Part shown: positions 2,752 to 41,793 of the stretch, piece by piece
Position numbering within the stretch: the stretch's first letter is position 1
How the letters are laid out: each line of letters starts with the position of its first letter
The notes under the pieces: generated by a model
Databases searched by the model: none
What the model saw: only the letters and a program-made list of their open reading frames with translations
Told to the model about the DNA's origin: nothing
Sequence record: PZ452584.1
Direction: 5' to 3' (one strand)
DNA from: a phage
DNA length: 64,000 nt
Made by a program: the position numbers and the translations under genes

Positions 2752-3767
2752 TGTGTTGCCTCTACATATAACTGATTTGCATATTGAATAAGTGCTTCAC
2801 GGTCAGAATCAGTGATGTCTGGAATTGCATTAATGTATTCTTCCATCAACGTCTGAAGAGATTGAACTTCAACTTCTTCACTGTCATCTGACTCGACAGA
2901 GTTATCAATCTTTGACACAACTCGTAATGAATGCACAACTTTTTCTAGTTCAGATTCGAACTTCGTCAGATTTTTGTCTACTTCAGTTACTATAACACGT
3001 ACTGATAGATTTGTAAAATCTTTATAGTCAATTTTTCCTTTAAATGGATAATGAATTCTACGATGCCAGGTAGTATTGTTTGGAATAAATTCCATTCGTT
3101 CTGTTTCTGTATCAAACATCCAGAACCCGCGAGGGTCATTCTCGTCACCTGCAGTTAGTGTCCATGGTGTCCCAATATATCTGACGTTAGCAGCCTCAGA
3201 GATAGTATGGAAGTGACCAGACCACACCTCTTTATAAGTCTTAAGGAAATCAGGTTCAAGACCATGAGATTTCATTCCTTTATAAAAATAAAATCCATTC
3301 AGTTCCCAGTGACCAACACAAAAAGAAGCAGAAGAAGTTTTTATGTGCTCGAGAATTTCACCAGTATTTTCTTCACACATCCAAGGAATTAAATCAATTA
3401 AACATCCGTCAAAATCTACTGTAGTAGGCTTATCATATACTTTAACATTAGGATATTTAGCCAAAAGCTCAGTAGAGGCATTTGGATGCATTACATTTTT
3501 GTAGTGGAGATCGTGATTTCCTACAATAGTATGTAATGTGATTCCAGCGTCATCAAGCATTTGAACTATTTCACGGGCAAACTCCATAGTTTTATGTGTG
3601 ATTGCTTTTCGCACATCAAAAATATCACCATATTGAATCCATACAGTAATTCCATTTTTCTTAGAATATTCTATCGCTTGCTTAATTCCATCAATTTGAA
3701 TACCGCGAATCCACTCATCATCAGCTTTAACGCCTAAATGCCAATCACCCGAGTTTAGTATTTTCAT
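2748..3767 (-). CDS. 47: Recombination nuclease subunit gp47 (Mre11/SbcD-like metallophosphoesterase)
   Basis: 339 aa; N-terminus MKILNSGDWHLG and GNHD motif typical of calcineurin-like nucleases; position between agt and 46. Confidence 0.9.
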   Translation of the reverse strand: MKILNSGDWHLGVKADDEWIRGIQIDGIKQAIEYSKKNGITVWIQYGDIFDVRKAITHKTMEFAREIVQMLDDAGITLHTIVGNHDLHYKNVMHPNASTELLAKYPNVKVYDKPTTVDFDGCLIDLIPWMCEENTGEILEHIKTSSASFCVGHWELNGFYFYKGMKSHGLEPDFLKTYKEVWSGHFHTISEAANVRYIGTPWTLTAGDENDPRGFWMFDTETERMEFIPNNTTWHRRIHYPFKGKIDYKDFTNLSVRVIVTEVDKNLTKFESELEKVVHSLRVVSKIDNSVESDDSEEVEVQSLQTLMEEYINAIPDITDSDREALIQYANQLYVEATQ

Positions 3768-6482: not shown

Positions 6483-6701
6483 TTATTTCTCTAATATAAA
6501 ATAAAAATCATCATCTGTTAAATGATACCGATAGTTTAATTCTACACCATTAGATTTAAAAGCGGTATCATACGGATTTTCTGGATCAATATCAATGTCA
6601 AGAGCTAAAACTTCCCTGAGATACATTTTAAGTAAATAGGGAATAGCTTCAACTTCAGGTATTTCTTCCAAGAATCCGGAGAGGTTAATCGTTAGCCTCA
6701 T
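6483..6701 (-). CDS. Hypothetical small protein
   Basis: Track ORF directly downstream of gene 55. Confidence 0.35.
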
Positions 6702-7242
6702 ATAAAAAATCCAAACTAGGAGAATCGTCTACAACACTTTTCTTTTCAGCCCCCGGTGTTCTATAGGTTGATTCTTCGTAATGCGTCATTTTATCGTAGA
6801 TGTCTTGAATAAAAGTTTCATCTACTAACGCAACCATATCGTCGTCACGGCTGTCATAGACATTGTGAACGAAGTAACTATATTTCTTTGCAACTTCCTT
6901 ACGTTCTTTTTTAATACGTTGGACGAATGCATTAAAACAAGCTTGAGTTATATACGCATGTGGGTTTTTATATTTCGTTTCATCAAAATTATGAAGCCCC
7001 TTAATAGAAGCTTCTATACCATCTGCAATCATTTCTTGTTTCCAAGACTGGGTGTATCCTGAAAAGTTGAAACGTTTAGATAAGCCTTCTGCAATAAGCA
7101 TAATGGCTAATCCAATAGTATCATTCTGACGAACTACTTTATTTGGGTCTTTATTATTTGCTAATTCTGTTTTCCAATCAATAATAGCTTGTAAAAGCTC
7201 TTTATTGTTTACGTAATTATATTTAGGCTTAGTTTCTGACAT
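6685..7242 (-). CDS. 55: Late-transcription sigma factor gp55
   Basis: [24 protein letters not shown]... recognised as T4 gp55; start set at the Met giving 185 aa (track ORF extends 2 codons upstream to 7248). Confidence 0.9.
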
Positions 7243-7324: not shown

Positions 7325-7540
7325 TCAAGCATTCATCAGCTTAGCTGCTCCAAGAGCTGCATCTAGTGAATCAAATTGGTCAACATATTCAATCAATTCG
7401 CCGTAATTAGCATATAACCACCATTGGCTAAATTCATACTCAAGGATGAATCCGTTTCCTTCAATTTGAGTTAAACCAATGCCATTTGTATTTACTTCAT
7501 ATCCAGCAAGACGCAAATCGTTAATAAGAGCTTCGTTCAT
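7325..7540 (-). CDS. Hypothetical small protein (55.x region)
   Basis: Track ORF. Confidence 0.35.
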   Translation of the reverse strand: MNEALINDLRLAGYEVNTNGIGLTQIEGNGFILEYEFSQWWLYANYGELIEYVDQFDSLDAALGAAKLMNA

Positions 7541-7542
7541 AA

Positions 7543-7869
7543 TTATACCTTAGTAATTTTCAGGTCTGCAAATTTTTTCTTGCGTTGATTTTTCATGCGA
7601 CGAATAGTTTTATCGGAAATTTCATGCTTTTGATAAGCTTTAGATTCTACACCAAAAGCTTTAACATCAAATTCTGACAAGATATATTGAACCAACAATT
7701 CACGGACAGTATTGCGTCCAATCTTCTGATCATTCTGTTTCATCGTCTGATGAAGCTCTTTTTCCCATTTATCCAAAATTTGAGGAGTTACAATATCGCC
7801 TTTTTCTAGCAAAGAAACTACTTTATCATATGCGTAAGAATTAATGACGTTTTTAATTTGAATAGTCAT
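7543..7869 (-). CDS. Hypothetical protein (55.x region)
   Basis: 108-aa ORF abutting neighbours. Confidence 0.4.
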   Translation of the reverse strand: MTIQIKNVINSYAYDKVVSLLEKGDIVTPQILDKWEKELHQTMKQNDQKIGRNTVRELLVQYILSEFDVKAFGVESKAYQKHEISDKTIRRMKNQRKKKFADLKITKV

Positions 7870-7920
7870 ACATTATCCTCAATTACGTTAAAATTTTATT
7901 ATCCAAAAGGGCCGAAGCCC

Positions 7921-8121
7921 TTAGCTAAACTTTTTGGCACCCTTCCAGCCTTCGTACATCATTGCGACTGACAATGACAAAGCTCCTTCGCATGCTGCAT
8001 ACTTATTATTCCAGAACCAATTTAGAAAAACTTCATCCTCAATACCATTGTGTTTCATGTTCTGGAAAAATTTGGCGCGTTCTTCAGCAATTCGCTGCGA
8101 TAATTTAGATTCAGGATTCAT
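7921..8121 (-). CDS. Hypothetical small protein
   Basis: Track ORF. Confidence 0.3.
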   Translation of the reverse strand: MNPESKLSQRIAEERAKFFQNMKHNGIEDEVFLNWFWNNKYAACEGALSLSVAMMYEGWKGAKKFS

Positions 8122-8337
8122 TTAAATTTTCCAGTTACCGTTTTCATCAATAAATTTAATCCAGTCATTTACTGACCACTTAGTTGTATCGCCTTTTGGG
8201 GCAGAATTTAAAGTGTAGAACCCTTGCTTAAAAAGCCAGCGTTTGATATTCATATTTTCCTCAGCTGTAACGATAACACTCGTTTGATTTACGTTTAGCA
8301 ACTCGTTGAGAAGTATTATAATCAAAATCATCATCAA
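8122..8337 (-). CDS. Hypothetical small protein
   Basis: Track ORF. Confidence 0.3.
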   Translation of the reverse strand: MMMILIIILLNELLNVNQTSVIVTAEENMNIKRWLFKQGFYTLNSAPKGDTTKWSVNDWIKFIDENGNWKI

Positions 8338-8599
8338 TGTAAACTGATTTTTTCAACTTTCTTACTTCACCGCGTAATTGACGATTTAACTCATCTTTAA
8401 CTTCTGAATCAATACCTTTCATTCTACGCCATTTATCTGAGCGAAAAATGTTTTTAACCATATCTTTATGACTTACACCATCAGGAGCTTTACGCTTTCC
8501 GAAATAGTCATAATCACGCACTTTTAAGTCTTTACGACGATACGTTTTACCCATGGAGTTTAATTTCCTTAGCAACTGAACTAAATACAGCACGGTCAC
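8261..8599 (-). CDS. Hypothetical basic protein (start probably internal)
   Basis: Track ORF; lysine/arginine-rich. Confidence 0.3.
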   Translation of the reverse strand: MTVLYLVQLLRKLNSMGKTYRRKDLKVRDYDYFGKRKAPDGVSHKDMVKNIFRSDKWRRMKGIDSEVKDELNRQLRGEVRKLKKSVYIDDDFDYNTSQRVAKRKSNECYRYS

Positions 8600-19373: not shown

Positions 19374-19901
19374 TTATGCGAGTACCGTCTTTAACCGTTC
19401 TTCAAACTTCCGAAGAGTGTTCTGGCGTTCAGCTCTTTGCTTTTTGTAAGTTTCAATACGCTCTGAAATGAGAGTGTATCGTTCATTTACTGATTCTTTC
19501 ATAAAATCAGGAATTTCACGAGAAGCTTTAATCTCGTCAAATTTATCAATAACAGCTTGCTCTTCAGCAATTAAGTTATCATACATCAAAATATCTTTCT
19601 TGATGAACTCAATATCTTCTTGAGTTACACGAGATAATTTAGATGCTTTATCCTTTTTGTACTGTTCGTTAGTATCACGAGACCAGTGTAATGTACGATT
19701 TTTATTCGTATTTTTGTAAATTTCTACAATACCAATCTCATCGATAATAACGATCCAATTCCAACGGGATTTATAAATTTGTCCTCCATCAACCGTGATT
19801 TCACCTCCGATTGAGATGTCATTAAAGAACTTGCTTTGTGCTTCAGATTTAAATTTACCATCGTTGTAATTTACCAGGTTGAAAATATCTTTAGCATTCA
19901 T
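19374..19901 (-). CDS. Hypothetical protein
   Basis: Track ORF 19374-19961 trimmed to the Met (MNAKDIF...) downstream of the promoter at 19925-19960. Confidence 0.45.
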   Translation of the reverse strand: MNAKDIFNLVNYNDGKFKSEAQSKFFNDISIGGEITVDGGQIYKSRWNWIVIIDEIGIVEIYKNTNKNRTLHWSRDTNEQYKKDKASKLSRVTQEDIEFIKKDILMYDNLIAEEQAVIDKFDEIKASREIPDFMKESVNERYTLISERIETYKKQRAERQNTLRKFEERLKTVLA

Positions 19902-19924
19902 TTTCTGTTCCTCCGTAGTTGATA

Positions 19925-19960
19925 GTTGTATAGTACCACAGAGGAACGGTCTTGTAAACA
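19925..19960 (-). promoter_or_regulatory. Early promoter-like element (-35 GTTTAC, -10 region within tatagtaccacag)
   Basis: Plus-strand gttgatagttgtatagtaccacag...cttgtaaaca; same motif recurs at 21365, 26000, 37440. Confidence 0.5.
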
Positions 19961-20366: not shown

Positions 20367-21347
20367 TTATTTCAGAAGAGTAACCTCAGCGATTTCTTCC
20401 CAGCCGTTTTTGTCGGTCATAATAAAGTCAGCAAGATAAAGAGCAGTACGCAGTGAAACATTGCGTAAACGATTAACATTGACTTTCATCCATGATAATG
20501 CTTTATAAGTTTCTTCATCAGAAAGACCACGCTTTTGCATCATGTCGGTTGAAAGAATAACATCTTCAACCCTGACCATAATTTCTTCATTAGTGTGAAC
20601 ACCCAAATCCAAATAAACTGAGCGGGACACTAATGCTTGTAAATGTGGAGCAAGTTTAGTACCACGGTCTAATTCGCGGTCAATGTCAACGTTTGTGATA
20701 AAAACAATCGTTCCTTTAAATTCAAACTCACGCTCAATGCCTTTTTCTTCTAAGTAAGAAGATGCAGTGCTCCAGCAGACTTTACGGGTCTCTCCAGTGT
20801 CCAGAGCGGCTTTTAGAAGATTAAGAATATCCATATCAGAGAAAACATCCACATCATCAATCAAAAGGACAGAATTCTCTTCACGATTATTCCAAAGCTG
20901 CTCATAAAGACCGATACCGGAGATTTTACCGTTAATGCTTTTATATTCAATGTATCCATTATCATTTGCTTTATTTAAAGCTTTATCTAAAGAATACGTT
21001 TTACCAATACCCGCCGCACCAGAGATAATTAATGAACGAATGTTTCCGTTAATAATACCATTCGTCATCATTCCCATAACATTAAATCTTTTATTAATGC
21101 GGGTTTTCATATCTTCATATGATTCTTTAACTTCTTCAACTTTTACACCATCATATGAAATGTCTGATTTGTAAACCCAAACACCGCGACGTTTACCGTC
21201 AATTTCAACAAAAACTTTACCATCTCCTTGTGCATCTACCGGAGCATTATCTGGGAACCATTCACCTAAGAGCTCAAAAGTTCCAGAGATTTCTTTACCA
21301 AAGTAGATACCCTTATTGATAGTTACAGTTTTCATTTTATTCTCCAA
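20367..21347 (-). CDS. P-loop ATPase (AAA-like)
   Basis: Walker A IISGAAGIGKTYS and Walker B VLLIDDVDVF. Confidence 0.6.
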   Translation of the reverse strand: MENKMKTVTINKGIYFGKEISGTFELLGEWFPDNAPVDAQGDGKVFVEIDGKRRGVWVYKSDISYDGVKVEEVKESYEDMKTRINKRFNVMGMMTNGIINGNIRSLIISGAAGIGKTYSLDKALNKANDNGYIEYKSINGKISGIGLYEQLWNNREENSVLLIDDVDVFSDMDILNLLKAALDTGETRKVCWSTASSYLEEKGIEREFEFKGTIVFITNVDIDRELDRGTKLAPHLQALVSRSVYLDLGVHTNEEIMVRVEDVILSTDMMQKRGLSDEETYKALSWMKVNVNRLRNVSLRTALYLADFIMTDKNGWEEIAEVTLLK

Positions 21348-21364
21348 ATCCGTATCAGTTGATA

Positions 21365-21452
21365 GTTGTATAGTACCATAAAGCTTTATGCTTGTAAACA
21401 GTTTTGTGAAAAAATTTTTGAAATAAAAAGGGGGACCTCTAGGGCCCCCTTT
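21365..21452 (-). promoter_or_regulatory. PeSL-like unit: terminator hairpin plus early promoter
   Basis: aaaagggggacctctagggccccc hairpin 21427-21452 preceded on plus strand by gtaaacagttttgtgaaaaaatttttgaaat and tatagtaccat. Confidence 0.55.
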
Positions 21453-32411: not shown

Positions 32412-32714
32412 TTATTTACCTTTAATTACTTTAGCTGCTTCGATAGCCGCTTGCTGAAGGTCATCCATAGACATACCGAATTTAGAAGCAAAGTTATCAA
32501 TTTTCTTTTCGACAGCATTCAAAGGCTTGGCCTGTTTACCTTCATTAGCGCCAGGAAGAGCGAGAATACGCTCTTTGTCAATATAAAGGCTTACAAGTTT
32601 CTTACGGTCTTTATCGGACAAATCATGAAATGAATGGGCCTTTTTATTTATAGCGGCTTCTAATTTACCTGCACTCACTCGCGCTTCAGTAATAAATTCT
32701 TGATATGTTTTCAT
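32412..32714 (-). CDS. ipII: Internal head protein IPII
   Basis: 100 aa with capsid-targeting leader MKTYQEFITEA. Confidence 0.85.
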   Translation of the reverse strand: MKTYQEFITEARVSAGKLEAAINKKAHSFHDLSDKDRKKLVSLYIDKERILALPGANEGKQAKPLNAVEKKIDNFASKFGMSMDDLQQAAIEAAKVIKGK

Positions 32715-32755: not shown

Positions 32756-33352
32756 TTAGGAATTACGGGCTGCATTAGCAACGGCGTAAGCGTACTGAAC
32801 ATTAGCGTCTTTAAACTTACCTTTAGAGGTATCTATTTCTGCCTTAAAGCCACCTTTAGTCATAACATCGGCAAATTCTTTACGGAAAGCCATTGCATCA
32901 AGACCTTTCCATGATGATTTATGCTTGGCAAATTCAAGACCTGCGAAGTTGACAGCTTTAGCCAATTTATTATCAATGACCCATTTACCGGCTTTAGGCA
33001 CAAACTTCGGGCCTTTCTGTTTAGAGAACAGTTTTAAATTCCAGCGGCGAAGGTCACTGTCGGCTTTAACAAAAGCTGCGTCTAAGTTACTAGCAACAAC
33101 ATCTTCAATATGAGCAAATTTAAGTCCGTCAACTTCAATATTTAAATCGGTACGCCAGCGAAGTCCTTCCCAAGCGAAGGCTTTAAAGTCGGAAGCCTTT
33201 GTAGCTAAGTACCGTTCAATAGGAGCTGTTTTAGGGTCAAAGCCGTTTCCTGGGCGGTCAACACCATTTCCTCGGTAGGTCCACTCATCTTTGTTAATGC
33301 CTTTGGCCTTTACTACAGAAGCTTCGGCAATAAATTCTTGATATGTTTTCAT
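32756..33352 (-). CDS. ipIII: Internal head protein IPIII
   Basis: 198 aa with leader MKTYQEFIAEA. Confidence 0.85.
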   Translation of the reverse strand: MKTYQEFIAEASVVKAKGINKDEWTYRGNGVDRPGNGFDPKTAPIERYLATKASDFKAFAWEGLRWRTDLNIEVDGLKFAHIEDVVASNLDAAFVKADSDLRRWNLKLFSKQKGPKFVPKAGKWVIDNKLAKAVNFAGLEFAKHKSSWKGLDAMAFRKEFADVMTKGGFKAEIDTSKGKFKDANVQYAYAVANAARNS

Positions 33353-36848: not shown

Positions 36849-37137
36849 AGTATTTCCTTAGGTTAATTAAGATTTAAAATCCATGAGAGTATTATACTCC
36901 GGATAGTTTGTAAACTATTTCAACATCGTCTTTTGCTGCTTTATAACCTTCAGCCCAAGATACAACCGAGTTTTTATCTGAAGATTCAAATTCTGGCATT
37001 GGGCTTTCGCCAATGTTCACGCAGTGTGTTTCTTCATTTTCGTCAAACCAAATAATTAAAGTAGTCATTTATTTCTCCGTTTTCTGTATTTGTTTTGATA
37101 AGTCTATAATAACACCGTCCTTGGTGTTTGTACACAA

Positions 37138-37413
37138 TTATTTCATATTATTGAAATATTCTTCTGCGATTTCATCGTTATCATGGTAAACTTTAGAAGA
37201 CAGTTTAACATAACCTTCAGCAGTGAACATGTTAATCACAACCTTTACAGTATACCACTGACCGTCTTCATTACCCATTACTGCGTAAGTTTCAAACATC
37301 GGATGATCAGGACCGATAACTTTAATATCATTCACTGTACGACCAAAATCTTCTGAAACACATTTCATAAAGAAGTTGAACAGTTCGCCGTAATTATCCA
37401 TTTCATTCTCCAA
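37138..37413 (-). CDS. Hypothetical protein (e.8 position)
   Basis: Likely start MDNYGELF preceded by GGAG; downstream of the promoter at 37440-37475. Confidence 0.4.
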   Translation of the reverse strand: MENEMDNYGELFNFFMKCVSEDFGRTVNDIKVIGPDHPMFETYAVMGNEDGQWYTVKVVINMFTAEGYVKLSSKVYHDNDEIAEEYFNNMK

Positions 37414-37439
37414 GTTGTTTTCTGTATCAGTAGTTGATA

Positions 37440-37475
37440 GTTGTATAGTACCATGGAAGAACAGGGATGTAAACA
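37440..37475 (-). promoter_or_regulatory. Early promoter-like element (-35 GTTTAC)
   Basis: gttgatagttgtatagtaccatgg...gatgtaaacagttttgtgaaaaaaaaaaatttt. Confidence 0.5.
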
Positions 37476-37610
37476 GTTTTGTGAAAAAAAAAAATTTTTA
37501 AAGGTTTTGGGGAATTCTAGGGCAGGGAGGGGAAATCAAAGGATAGGATAATATATTATAAAGGATAGAAACTAAATGATGCCTAGAGAGGCCTGGAAAG
37601 GCCTAGATAC

Positions 37611-37640
37611 CAAAAAATCCCTATCATTTAGATAGGGATT
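37611..37640 (-). terminator. Rho-independent terminator after the IP-like gene
   Basis: Minus strand reads aaatccctatctaaatgatagggattttttgg: 8-bp stem followed by T6. Confidence 0.55.
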
Positions 37641-37645
37641 TAAAA

Positions 37646-38209
37646 TTATTTACCCAGTTTAGTTATTATAGCTTCGGCAGCAGCTTTTAGCTTAGATGCA
37701 GTGTTAATACGATTTTTAATTTCAGTATACGCATCGCCAAGAACATCAAGGCTGTCAGAATAAACACTTACACTATTGCGTTCGCTATTTGAAATAGAAC
37801 CTTTAGTTTTACGATCAAAATCGGTGTACACGTCTTGAAGATCGCGGGCTGCCTTCTTTGCATCATCCAATGCATCAAGAGCTTTATTCAAAGCATTGAC
37901 ATATTTTTTAGTGTCAAACATATTCTTAGAAATTTTAACAGGTGCACGTTCAGGAGTAGCTAAGGCAGATTTAGGAACCTGAGCGCCTGATGCTAATTTC
38001 TTAGAAATTTTGAAAAATGCTTTATTGAATTTATTTTCTTGACTCATCGTAAAAGAACTATTATCAATGTTATACATTTCAATAGCTTTAGCTTTCCACT
38101 TAAGAAAATCGCCCCGGTCTTTTGGGTCCAAGTGGAAGAATACTTTAGTAAGATCTGTTTCAGATGGTAATTTTGCTGCTTCGGTTAAAAATTCGGCATA
38201 GGTTTTCAT
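37646..38209 (-). CDS. Internal-protein-like capsid-targeted protein (novel IP family member)
   Basis: 187 aa beginning MKTYAEFLTEA, same leader pattern as IPII/IPIII with L-x-E cleavage context; rest unlike IPII/IPIII. Confidence 0.55.
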   Translation of the reverse strand: MKTYAEFLTEAAKLPSETDLTKVFFHLDPKDRGDFLKWKAKAIEMYNIDNSSFTMSQENKFNKAFFKISKKLASGAQVPKSALATPERAPVKISKNMFDTKKYVNALNKALDALDDAKKAARDLQDVYTDFDRKTKGSISNSERNSVSVYSDSLDVLGDAYTEIKNRINTASKLKAAAEAIITKLGK

Positions 38210-38295
38210 TTAAAATCCTTGAAATAATCTATCGGTTGGTTATTAATTATTTATTACTTTGTTATTATCCGTAACAGCATTCTCTGAGTGATTCA

Positions 38296-38322
38296 AACTA
38301 AAAAGCCCCAACCTTTCGGTCG
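38296..38322 (-). terminator. Rho-independent terminator ending the tRNA/stable-RNA transcription unit
   Basis: Minus strand reads agccccgaccgaaaggttggggctttttag. Confidence 0.55.
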
Positions 38323-38643
38323 GGGCTAAGCCTTGCGGCAACCTTGTCGGGGTTCCACCTGCTAAGGCAAGTGTTTGTACGAAACGCCGGGATTTGAACC
38401 CGGTTATTAAGTAGTTGACGCTACTCAATATTTTTAAAAGGCCATATCTCAACCATATCCGAACGTTCCGTCAAAAACGCTACTCGGCTTACGGCAAAGA
38501 TATTTCCTCGAATCGATAATTCGGTGCGCCGTTTCTGCTGTGATATAAGGGGGCATTAATAAAACATAAAGATTTATTAATGCCAGTCCTTAAACAGGGA
38601 GCATCAGTCCGACGACTTACCGGTAGCGACCCGGTTTCTTGTT
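38323..38643 (-). ncRNA. Stable small RNA region (position of T4 RNA C / RNA D); boundaries approximate
   Basis: About 320 nt non-coding between tRNA-Arg and terminator; contains a tRNA-like T-arm (ccgggttcaaatcccgg on minus strand). Confidence 0.35.
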
Positions 38644-38720
<77 letters not shown>

Positions 38721-38723
38721 TAA

Positions 38724-39389
38724 TTAAAATTTCATTTTTCGACCTTTAAACCATCCTTCTGGAATTGGGTCAGTTTTCTTAATACGTTTAGAAACTTTTT
38801 CATCTAATGAATGAATCCACATCATACCAAATTGGGAATTCTTTTCACCTTGTTGGTGTTTATTTCTGGCGTGAGATTCTTTCATTTTATTAATAGTTTC
38901 AGGAGTATGGGTCTTACCCAAGAAAGATTTAGTATTTAAAAATTTCTCTCTATACTTAGGATTATCCCAAAGCTGTTTAAACCTTTCTGAACCCATTTTA
39001 CGATATTTTTCTTTAAGGTCTAGGTCGTTCTCAAATCTGGTTTTAAAAGCAGCAGCCCCTTTTAAGGAAGCTTCTTTCTTTTTATCCAAATATTCTTTAG
39101 TGTTTAAATGGTCCCAACCACCTTCACCACCTAATTTCAAATTATAAACATCAGGGCGCTTTAAAAACTCTTCAGTCACAATATTCTTTTCTGACTCAAA
39201 CATAGAGGTTTTATCGTCAAAGAACTCTAATATTTCTTTAGAGAAATTTTCTATACCATACTTGTCTTGGGCTCTTTTTAATAATTTACCAGAACCCATA
39301 TATCCATCATCTAAATTTTCGGTAGAATGAGCGCCTATATAGATTTTATTATTAATTTTATTTGTTATTTTATAAGTGTAATGGAACAT
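38724..39389 (-). mobile_element. segB: GIY-YIG homing endonuclease SegB within the tRNA cluster
   Basis: MFHYTYKITNKINNKIYIGAHST... GIY-YIG motifs; placed between tRNA-Arg and the seven-tRNA block as in T4. Confidence 0.8.
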
Positions 39390-39430: not shown

Positions 39431-39502
39431 TGGCCCTGGGTGGAATTGAACCACCATCTGGCGATTATGAGTCGCTTGCTTGAACCTTCCAGCTACAGGG
39501 CC
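39431..39502 (-). tRNA. tRNA-Ile (anticodon CAU; Met cannot be excluded)
   Basis: Acceptor GGCCCUG/CAGGGCC, T-arm GGUGGUUCAAUUCCACC, anticodon loop CUCAUAA. Confidence 0.7.
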
Positions 39503-40088: not shown

Positions 40089-40604
40089 TTAAAGCAAATT
40101 AAACATTTTAACTGCAGGTATTACAATTTCTTTTTCTATATAAGAGCATTTAACACTCTCAACTACACGCAAAAAATCATAATCATAATACTCAGAAGCA
40201 TTACCTAAAATATTAATAAGTCCTTCAAGCACTTTATTACCATTCACAAAGAATAAGTCAAATACACGTTCTTCGTCTTCTTCGGATTCATTACCAAAGT
40301 CAACTTCTATATCAAAGACCTTTTTAATGAATTCTGGATAAAGCTGGTCTGAGAACAGTCCTTCAACCAAGTATTCATAAATAAAAAGCGATTGCTCACT
40401 GAACAAGCCATTACCACAATAACGTTCAACTTTAGTATTAGAATGTCGGCTTTTAAACTTCTTTAAAAGATATTGGAACTGTAAGATTTCATGTTCTTTA
40501 ATTCCAAATATTGATTTAGTTTTATAATTATCACCATCATTTTCCCATGTAGTGACATCAATTACATAACCCTTAGGAATTGTACAGCCTAAACGAATAT
40601 TCAT
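40089..40604 (-). CDS. Hypothetical protein (variable region between tRNAs and ipI locus)
   Basis: 171-aa track ORF. Confidence 0.4.
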   Translation of the reverse strand: MNIRLGCTIPKGYVIDVTTWENDGDNYKTKSIFGIKEHEILQFQYLLKKFKSRHSNTKVERYCGNGLFSEQSLFIYEYLVEGLFSDQLYPEFIKKVFDIEVDFGNESEEDEERVFDLFFVNGNKVLEGLINILGNASEYYDYDFLRVVESVKCSYIEKEIVIPAVKMFNLL

Positions 40605-41535: not shown

Positions 41536-41793
41536 TTATTTTAAATCTTCTAATCGTTTCTTCATCTTAGAACCATTTTTAGCGATTTCTCCTGCATCGG
41601 AGCATAATGCTAAAAGAGCTTTAACTTTAGTTTGGTCTCCTTTAAAAGATGAAGGATCGACTGCAGCAGCAAGTTCTTTAATACGAGAAAAAAGACGCTC
41701 AGCTTCAGCTAAAGCCATTCCAAGTTTTACTTCCATACCGTGGGAAGATTCAGTGATAGTAGTTTTTGTAGCAAACTCTTTGAAAGTTTTCAT
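41536..41793 (-). CDS. Internal-protein-like small protein at the ipI locus (sequence differs from T4 IPI as I recall it)
   Basis: 85 aa, leader-like MKTFKEFATKTTITE then helical body; bracketed by two near-identical promoter units. Confidence 0.5.
   Translation of the reverse strand: MKTFKEFATKTTITESSHGMEVKLGMALAEAERLFSRIKELAAAVDPSSFKGDQTKVKALLALCSDAGEIAKNGSKMKKRLEDLK

Follow-up and report, generated by a model that had tools for sequence, protein, structure and literature searches.

An additional internal head protein candidate and its family at the e.8/rnaC locus of T4-like phages

The gene and its transcription unit

The subject of this analysis is a gene between rnaC and e.8 in a 64,000-nucleotide (nt) stretch of phage DNA (sequence record PZ452584.1), hereafter the window. 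The gene encodes a protein of 187 amino acids (aa) with a leader resembling those of the internal proteins (IPs) of T4-type heads, and we have examined it computationally as a candidate for a further protein of this kind. By sequence, the window segment is that of a Tequatrovirus (T4-like) genome. A megablast search with the 909-bp region around the gene matched 533 phage records (165 with at least 80% query coverage), the best being 97% identical, and the identity of the region to complete Tequatrovirus genomes is 95-97% at the nucleotide level.

In T4, the rnaC terminator runs directly into the e.8 upstream sequence. When the T4 e.8-rnaC interval is aligned to the window by blastn, it maps to 37402-37616 and 38297-38377, and the 680 bp between these two blocks are extra. 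This additional segment is a complete cassette (Table 1), bounded upstream by a hairpin that marks the end of the tRNA/stable-RNA transcript and downstream by an intrinsic terminator of its own. The first-pass annotation of this DNA had described the 187-aa open reading frame (ORF) with its IP-like leader and a terminator belonging to it, and both descriptions held up: the ORF and its MKTYAEFLTEA start are confirmed, and the hairpin and T-run, previously given as 37611-37640, are found at 37615-37641.

The encoded protein matches phrog_2280, a family of "unknown function," with residues 1-181 aligned to profile positions 1-178 of 178 (expect value, E, of 1.2e-53). Searching by tblastn, we find the same gene in 165 phage records, with amino-acid identities of 96-99% in all but one, and in every record inspected it is annotated as "hypothetical protein." Pairwise ratios of nonsynonymous to synonymous substitution rates (dN/dS) among five alleles are 0.03-0.09 wherever dS is informative, indicating strong purifying selection on the protein.

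Upstream of the ATG lies AATAAATA, which differs from the T4-type late promoter box TATAAATA in having A at position -13. Among listed T4 late promoters, 32 of 50 have exactly TATAAATA, while 9 of 50 have A for T at -13, the commonest natural variant (PMC2988020). In all 13 phrog_2280 family genes read at this locus, a terminator hairpin is directly followed by a box of the form [T/A]ATAAATA, which lies 28-40 nt 5' of the ATG. The box is also present in two of three further gene copies (the gene of Klebsiella phage KP01 and the first gene of a tandem pair in Yersinia phage fHe-Yen9-01), for a total of 15 out of 16. The remaining copy, the second fHe-Yen9-01 gene, is separated from the first by only 9 nt and has no box of its own. 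The first position of the box alternates between T and A among orthologues whose contexts are otherwise alike. We therefore give weight to AATAAATA for its conservation across phages and for being a known T4 variant, and not for its statistics within the window. The possible late-promoter-like site of the first-pass annotation can thus be placed at a defined box kept in nearly all family copies, although the 8-mer is unenriched in the window. No sigma-70-type promoter was found between the upstream terminator and the ATG, and the gene appears, from the box, to be expressed late. Apparently late-only expression behind a terminator sets it apart from ipIII and the Ip5-type gene of the window, both of which have sigma-70-like early promoters upstream. 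The unit as a whole, running from terminator through late promoter, Shine-Dalgarno sequence, and leader-bearing ORF to a second terminator, fits a protein made only during head building.

Table 1. Features of the e.8/rnaC locus and other leader-bearing ORFs, in window coordinates
Feature	Position	Strand	Description
Terminator hairpin 3' of rnaC	38304-38327	minus	10-bp stem with 7 GC pairs, T-run
Cassette without T4 counterpart	37617-38296	minus	680 bp; late promoter, Shine-Dalgarno sequence, ORF, and terminator
Candidate late promoter box	38248-38255	minus	AATAAATA, A(-13) variant of TATAAATA; 38 nt 5' of ATG
Shine-Dalgarno sequence	38216-38220	minus	AAGGA, 6 nt 5' of ATG; read off the sequence
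Complete coding sequence, including stop codon	37646-38209	minus	187 aa, starts MKTYAEFLTEA; equivalent to RB14ORF136, Shfl2p135, and RB69ORF149c/148c; phrog_2280
Predicted capsid targeting leader	38180-38209	minus	MKTYAEFLTE; L-T-E gp21 motif, then Ala
Predicted mature protein	37649-38179	minus	177 aa, 19.7 kDa, pI 9.5, no Cys
Intrinsic terminator of the 187-aa gene	37615-37641	minus	11-bp stem, 5-nt loop, T-run
Intergenic segment, pyrimidine-rich on the transcribed strand	37474-37614	minus	From composition; common to T4
e.8 early promoter, sigma-70-type	37445-37473	minus	TTTACA, 17 nt, TACTAT, with TG; adjoins the preceding segment
IPII	32412-32714	minus	Leader-pattern match, six-frame pattern scan
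IPIII	32756-33352	minus	Leader-pattern match, six-frame pattern scan
Ip5-type ORF at the ipI position	41536-41793	minus	85 aa; leader-pattern match; MKTFKEFATKTTITE...; phrog_3499 "internal head protein"

The phrog_2280 family and the states of the locus

Within phrog_2280, we distinguish three types. Type A (153-157 aa; 512 records) includes fD1 g140, which starts MKSYTQFLNEA, as well as AR1 ar1_137 and e112_137. Type B (187 aa; 165 records) comprises the window gene, RB14ORF136, and Shfl2p135, while type C (205 aa) includes JS98 orf135. All three match the phrog_2280 profile end to end (E of 1e-54 to 1e-60), and pairwise links are seen between A and C (3e-9) and between B and C (4e-4). A BLASTP comparison of A with B aligned only the 11-residue leader, suggesting unrelated bodies behind a common leader, but this interpretation was rejected in light of the profile matches and of type C as an intermediate. 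As all three types match the profile and type C bridges A and B, they are homologous and, judged by sequence, are diverged paralogues with one domain plan. The paralogues share with type B the locus, the layout of terminator, late promoter, and leader, and the succession of a helical N-terminal domain, a Pro/Lys linker, and a helical C-terminal domain. They differ from it in sequence (14-31% identity) and in frequency, with type A being far commoner than type B (512 versus 165 records). Types A and C have a second L-N-E site at residues 13-15, which suggests trimming in two steps.

Members of the family lie on the upstream side of the e.8/e.6 block in Tequatrovirus, RB69, JS98, fHe-Yen9-01, and KP01. 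The genera Tequatrovirus, Mosigvirus, and Dhakavirus, the phage fHe-Yen9-01, and a Klebsiella T4-type phage all have phrog_2280 as a resident of this site. With the exception of T4, T2, and T6, in which we find no family member at the e.8/rnaC site, every Tevenvirinae genome examined has one or two leader-bearing ORFs upstream of e.8. The KP01 member has the leader MKFKEFLAE. The tandem pair of fHe-Yen9-01 (7422-8537) consists of a B-like gene (189 aa, MLQYNEFLKE) and an A-like gene (178 aa, MLEYSEFLKE), with both placed behind one terminator and TATAAATA; these A-like and B-like family members include gp153. Just upstream of the pair is a 52-aa ORF (6700-6858) with an MKTYIEFINE leader. The copy in RB69 (Mosigvirus; 3001-3563) shares approximately 97% of its aligned amino acids with the Tequatrovirus alleles, a value that seems high for a comparison across genera and might suggest a recent lateral transfer. 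This copy is frameshifted into ORF149c and ORF148c, and is either a pseudogene or the product of a sequencing error.

Four states of the locus can be recognized: empty, as in T4; A only, as in fD1; B only, as in the window, RB14, Shfl2, and RB69; and A then B, as in ime09. Because megablast joins pieces that are up to approximately 620 bp apart, two of the four junctions do not discriminate, and we used only the counts from junction-specific searches for A/B and A/spacer. The A-B junction of the tandem state occurs in 125 records and the A-spacer junction of the A-only state in 278, leaving about 40 records with B only (165 minus 125; approximate). The flanking sequences occur in about 720 records. 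By our estimate, a family member is present in over half of the sequenced phage records that have this locus. The window does not have the usual upstream type A paralogue and, going by this arrangement, its lineage has lost type A.

The boundaries of these modules are repeated. A terminator of approximately 30 nt, TTAGCCCCGACC(G/A)AAAGGTTGGGGCTTTTT, follows rnaC and recurs after gene A in ime09 (~1380-1415) and in fD1 (after g140), and the next terminator likewise ends in a T-run, which is followed by GGTATCTAGG. Bracketing gene-sized modules as they do, the terminator repeats look like recombination sites, and recombination between them would, from the junction sequences only, give all four states of the locus. 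There is a parallel in the PeSLs of Arbiol et al. (2010), reportedly mobile regulatory cassettes of T4-type phages. These are likewise said to be gene-sized modules bounded by repeated stem-loops and apparently gained or lost by recombination between the repeats. The repeats nonetheless differ in makeup, with the PeSL repeat being an early promoter and stem-loop, whereas at the e.8/rnaC locus, the repeated element consists of a terminator hairpin and, after it, a late promoter.

As the same site is occupied in several genera, the family is probably ancestral there and was lost by T4, T2, and T6. The comparison with other T4-type genomes that the first-pass annotation had proposed as a check thus reveals a resident leader-bearing family, and this revises its view of an extra inserted cargo gene: the 680 bp are indeed extra with respect to T4, but they are not a one-off acquisition, and "inserted" probably inverts the course that the change took. 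The vacancy of the site in T4, T2, and T6 also probably explains why a 2025 study of Ip1, Ip2, and Ip3 speaks of "two Ip loci" (PMC12373910). The 187-aa gene varies even among close relatives, being absent from T4, T2, and T6, present in 165 records, and frameshifted in RB69. As with the known ip genes, phages can thus do without it and differ in whether they have it, and it points to the e.8/rnaC site as a third internal-protein locus that is not visible in T4, T2, or T6.

Leader, packaging, and possible function

We consider it probable that the 187-aa gene encodes an unannotated T4-type internal head protein, that is, one expressed late, targeted to the prohead core, cut by the gp21 protease after Glu10, kept in the head, and injected. 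The leader carries most of this argument. The pattern MK[TS][YFW]x[EDQ]F has four matches when all six frames of the 64-kb window are translated, and each of them starts a genuine minus-strand ORF: the 187-aa gene, IPII, IPIII, and the Ip5-type ORF. Because all four matches are the starts of real ORFs, the resemblance is not due to chance. In IPIII, amber-suppression analysis assigned leader positions 4 and 7 to targeting and positions 8 and 10 to cleavage by gp21 at L/I-X-E (PMC9026906). All four critical positions are present in MKTYAEFLTE, with Y4 and F7 corresponding to targeting and L8 and E10 to processing, and position 10 is Glu rather than Asp. The leaders of IPII and IPIII, MKTYQEFI(T/A)E followed by Ala, are nearly identical to it. 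More broadly, the motif aromatic-x-x-F-L-x-E is kept in all 16 family sequences read, in forms summarized as MKTY/MKSY/MLQY/MLEY/MKF-x-(E/Q)-F-L-x-E. Positions 2, 3, and 5 vary, while the aromatic residue at 4, Phe7, Leu8, and Glu10 are constant in front of bodies that are only 14-31% identical. Although genes 21 and 22 are outside the window, we infer that the phage carries the T4 prohead core and gp21 protease from its 95-97% identity to complete Tequatrovirus genomes and from the presence of IPII and IPIII.

Evidence of packaging is indirect and comes from a paralogue. The type A protein fD1 g140 was identified using liquid chromatography coupled to tandem mass spectrometry (LC-MS/MS) in each of two preparations of purified virions (PMC8309999, Table S3). 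Together with the leader, this bears on the alternative that the 187-aa protein is a late cytoplasmic protein that is never packaged, with its leader a relic of recombination with an ip gene or retained for another use. The lack of direct virion evidence for the 187-aa protein itself is compatible with such a protein, as is the shortness of ip leaders, which limits the resemblance to about 10 residues. However, no part of the family is as well conserved across several genera as the leader, in which precisely the four critical residues persist while positions 2, 3, and 5 drift, and the type A paralogue was detected in virions. We regard this explanation as quite improbable.

The cleavage site bears on a further alternative. 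L8-T9-E10, followed by Ala11, is the sole L/I-x-E site in the 187-aa protein. A targeting leader and late expression are also features of core proteins, and the product could in principle be an accessory of the prohead core or scaffold, similar to gp67 or gp68, that is degraded and expelled at maturation and never injected. Core proteins that are cleared in this way are cut into several fragments (PMC9026906), whereas here the single site is at the leader; the gene is, moreover, dispensable in T4, T2, and T6. This fate is thus very improbable indeed, and a packaged and retained internal protein remains our preferred interpretation.

By tblastn, no other IP in the window is similar to the protein past its leader. 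As the first-pass annotation had noted, its body is unlike IPII and IPIII: we detect no likeness after residue 11, and in Pfam, which includes IpII and IpIII families, the protein has no family match. A cytochrome b562-like Pfam hit (17.7 bits against a cut-off of 30) was rejected as sub-threshold noise. An exhaustive HMMER search with the mature part against 1.84 billion representative proteins returned five hits, all from its own family, and no function-bearing remote homologue. An AlphaFold2 model built from a 14-sequence family alignment has a mean predicted local distance difference test (pLDDT) score of 79 and is all-alpha with two domains. Residues 17-73 form a helical N-terminal domain and residues 101-185 a confidently modelled C-terminal three-helix bundle, with a disordered linker rich in Pro and Lys (74-100) between them. 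As modelled, the structure yields no functional lead.

In the infection cycle that we propose, late transcription would proceed from the A(-13) variant promoter between the two terminators, and the leader MKTYAEFLTE would bring the 187-aa precursor into the assembling prohead core, where gp21 would cleave between Glu10 and Ala11. The basic 19.7-kDa mature protein would then remain in the DNA-filled head and enter the cell with the genome. In the new host, it may disarm a first-response defence, with a variant Type IV (GmrSD-like) restriction enzyme as the most plausible target. Ip1, Ip2, and Ip3 have only the leader in common, and yet the GmrSD Type IV restriction enzyme that each inhibits is a different one (PMC12373910), which makes an anti-defence role the leading guess for the 187-aa protein as well.

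Several observations weigh against this interpretation. We found no experimental or proteomic record of the 187-aa protein in virions or in cleaved form, and it is from the leader, the transcription unit, and the type A paralogue that we infer its packaging, cleavage, and injection. The fD1 proteome itself is of low specificity, as it assigns to the particles 113 of the 277 phage gene products along with 672 host proteins, including DenV, lysozyme e, and NudE. In the literature searched, no paper names the protein, and nothing relevant was found under the family's locus tags or accession numbers. The box AATAAATA is not enriched in the window (6 found versus 15 expected). Fold searches of BFVD and the PDB with the model recovered only its own family and generic helical bundles, and we observe no sequence or fold likeness to IPI*, IPII, IPIII, or known anti-defence proteins. 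Finally, the anti-defence role is proposed purely by analogy, and its target is speculative.

The properties of the mature protein must also be considered in terms of a structural role, in which the protein would be packaged but would neutralize DNA charge or aid head-core assembly, a part that has also been suggested for IPIII in head morphogenesis, without a specific host target. The predicted product is Lys-rich, with 32 Lys and Arg residues and a pI of 9.5, and it is comparable in this regard to the IPIII (20.9 kDa, pI 9.7) and IPII (pI 9.7) of the window. In internal proteins, lysines make contacts with the phosphates of DNA (PMC3012670), and IPIII mutants show aberrations in head assembly (PMC9026906). 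Purifying selection within the type is also very strong, unlike that expected of a fast-moving arms-race protein. Yet T4, T2, and T6 build heads without any family member, IPIII was itself formerly deemed structural and proved to be a GmrSD inhibitor, and the combination of presence/absence polymorphism with diverged paralogues is typical of accessory anti-defence genes. On balance, we regard a purely structural role as unlikely, and an injected internal protein is the reading that we carry forward.

Compared to known systems, the 187-aa protein is closest in general character to IPII, IPIII, and Ip4, which are likewise small, basic, Cys-free products of non-essential, polymorphic T-even accessory genes; its mature size is also similar to that of IPIII (19.7 versus 20.9 kDa). 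It differs from them in its locus, which is at e.8/rnaC for the 187-aa gene but at denV-e or 57B-trna.4 for the IPII/IPIII/Ip4 group. With T4 IPI*/Ip5, the founding GmrSD inhibitor from the ipI locus, it would share the overall logic, in which gp21 takes off a propeptide, the protein enters the cell together with the DNA, and the locus is hypervariable. At about 19 residues (MKTFKEF...TE, then Ala), however, the leader of IPI exceeds that of the 187-aa protein in length, and IPI* adopts a compact 76-residue alpha/beta fold (PMC3012670), in contrast to the two-domain, all-alpha model obtained here. By extension, types A, B, and C may all be injected from a third IP locus at the e.8/rnaC site, with each neutralizing a distinct first-response defence, possibly an additional subtype of GmrSD or some other modification-dependent system. 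We put forward this broader scheme only tentatively, as being somewhat doubtful.

Surrounding features and significance

The segment between the cassette and e.8 had been described in the first-pass annotation as an odd G-rich spacer following the gene. On the plus strand it is indeed G-rich, with 27% G and 9% C compared to 16% and 18% in the whole window, but it is ordinary T4 sequence (91% identical) that lies outside the cassette. By its conservation, it belongs to the e.8 upstream region and not to the cassette of the 187-aa gene. The e.8 early promoter is conserved as far as Dhakavirus, whereas the strand-skewed part of approximately 110 nt (37500-37612) is found in Tequatrovirus and RB69 and is absent in Dhakavirus. 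RNA folding of the spacer is not significant (z of -0.96), and the only Rfam matches near the gene are tRNAs, none of which fall in the spacer. Two other places in the window, 21336-21423 and 19900-19960, match the promoter-proximal portion of the sequence upstream of T4 e.8 with 77-80% identity, and these are probably further copies of an extended T4 early-promoter module.

The e.1-e.8 interval, which had been thought to be otherwise complete, is not, as e.7 has no homologue in the window (tblastn) and has been replaced: its place between e.6 and e.8 is taken by an unrelated 58-aa ORF of the RB14 orf134 type (36892-37068, minus strand). On the other side of the locus, the stretch 38378-39389 (minus strand) is a mosaic with respect to T4, with rnaC 99%, rnaD 88%, and segB, which encodes a GIY-YIG homing endonuclease, 84% identical. 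For comparison, e.6, e.8, and ipII are 96-98% identical to T4, and the mosaic pattern of identity suggests an exchanged segment around segB. At 39431-39502 (minus strand), next to tRNA-Thr, ARAGORN calls a tRNA-Met (CAT) where T4 annotates tRNA-Ile. Ambiguity of this kind is usual for the CAU anticodon, which decodes Ile after lysidine modification. The tRNA cluster and trna.2 are separated by a 171-aa ORF of the RB69ORF151c type (40089-40604, minus strand), at a position where T4 has no gene. Farther along, the Ip5-type ORF takes the place of T4 ipI; its equivalent in T6 is annotated "Ip5, replaces ipI."

The 187-aa gene is new to annotation, yet it probably belongs to a well-known class, that of the capsid-targeted internal proteins. 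The capsid targeting sequence that is used for loading cargo into engineered T4 heads has a natural variant in its leader. A modest but concrete use of these results is in the better annotation of therapeutic T4-like phages, while for the study of phage-host conflict, the phrog_2280 family provides ready candidates for new injected anti-defence proteins. If the e.8/rnaC site is truly a third locus with an injected family, it would help to explain differences in host range among therapeutic Tequatrovirus isolates.

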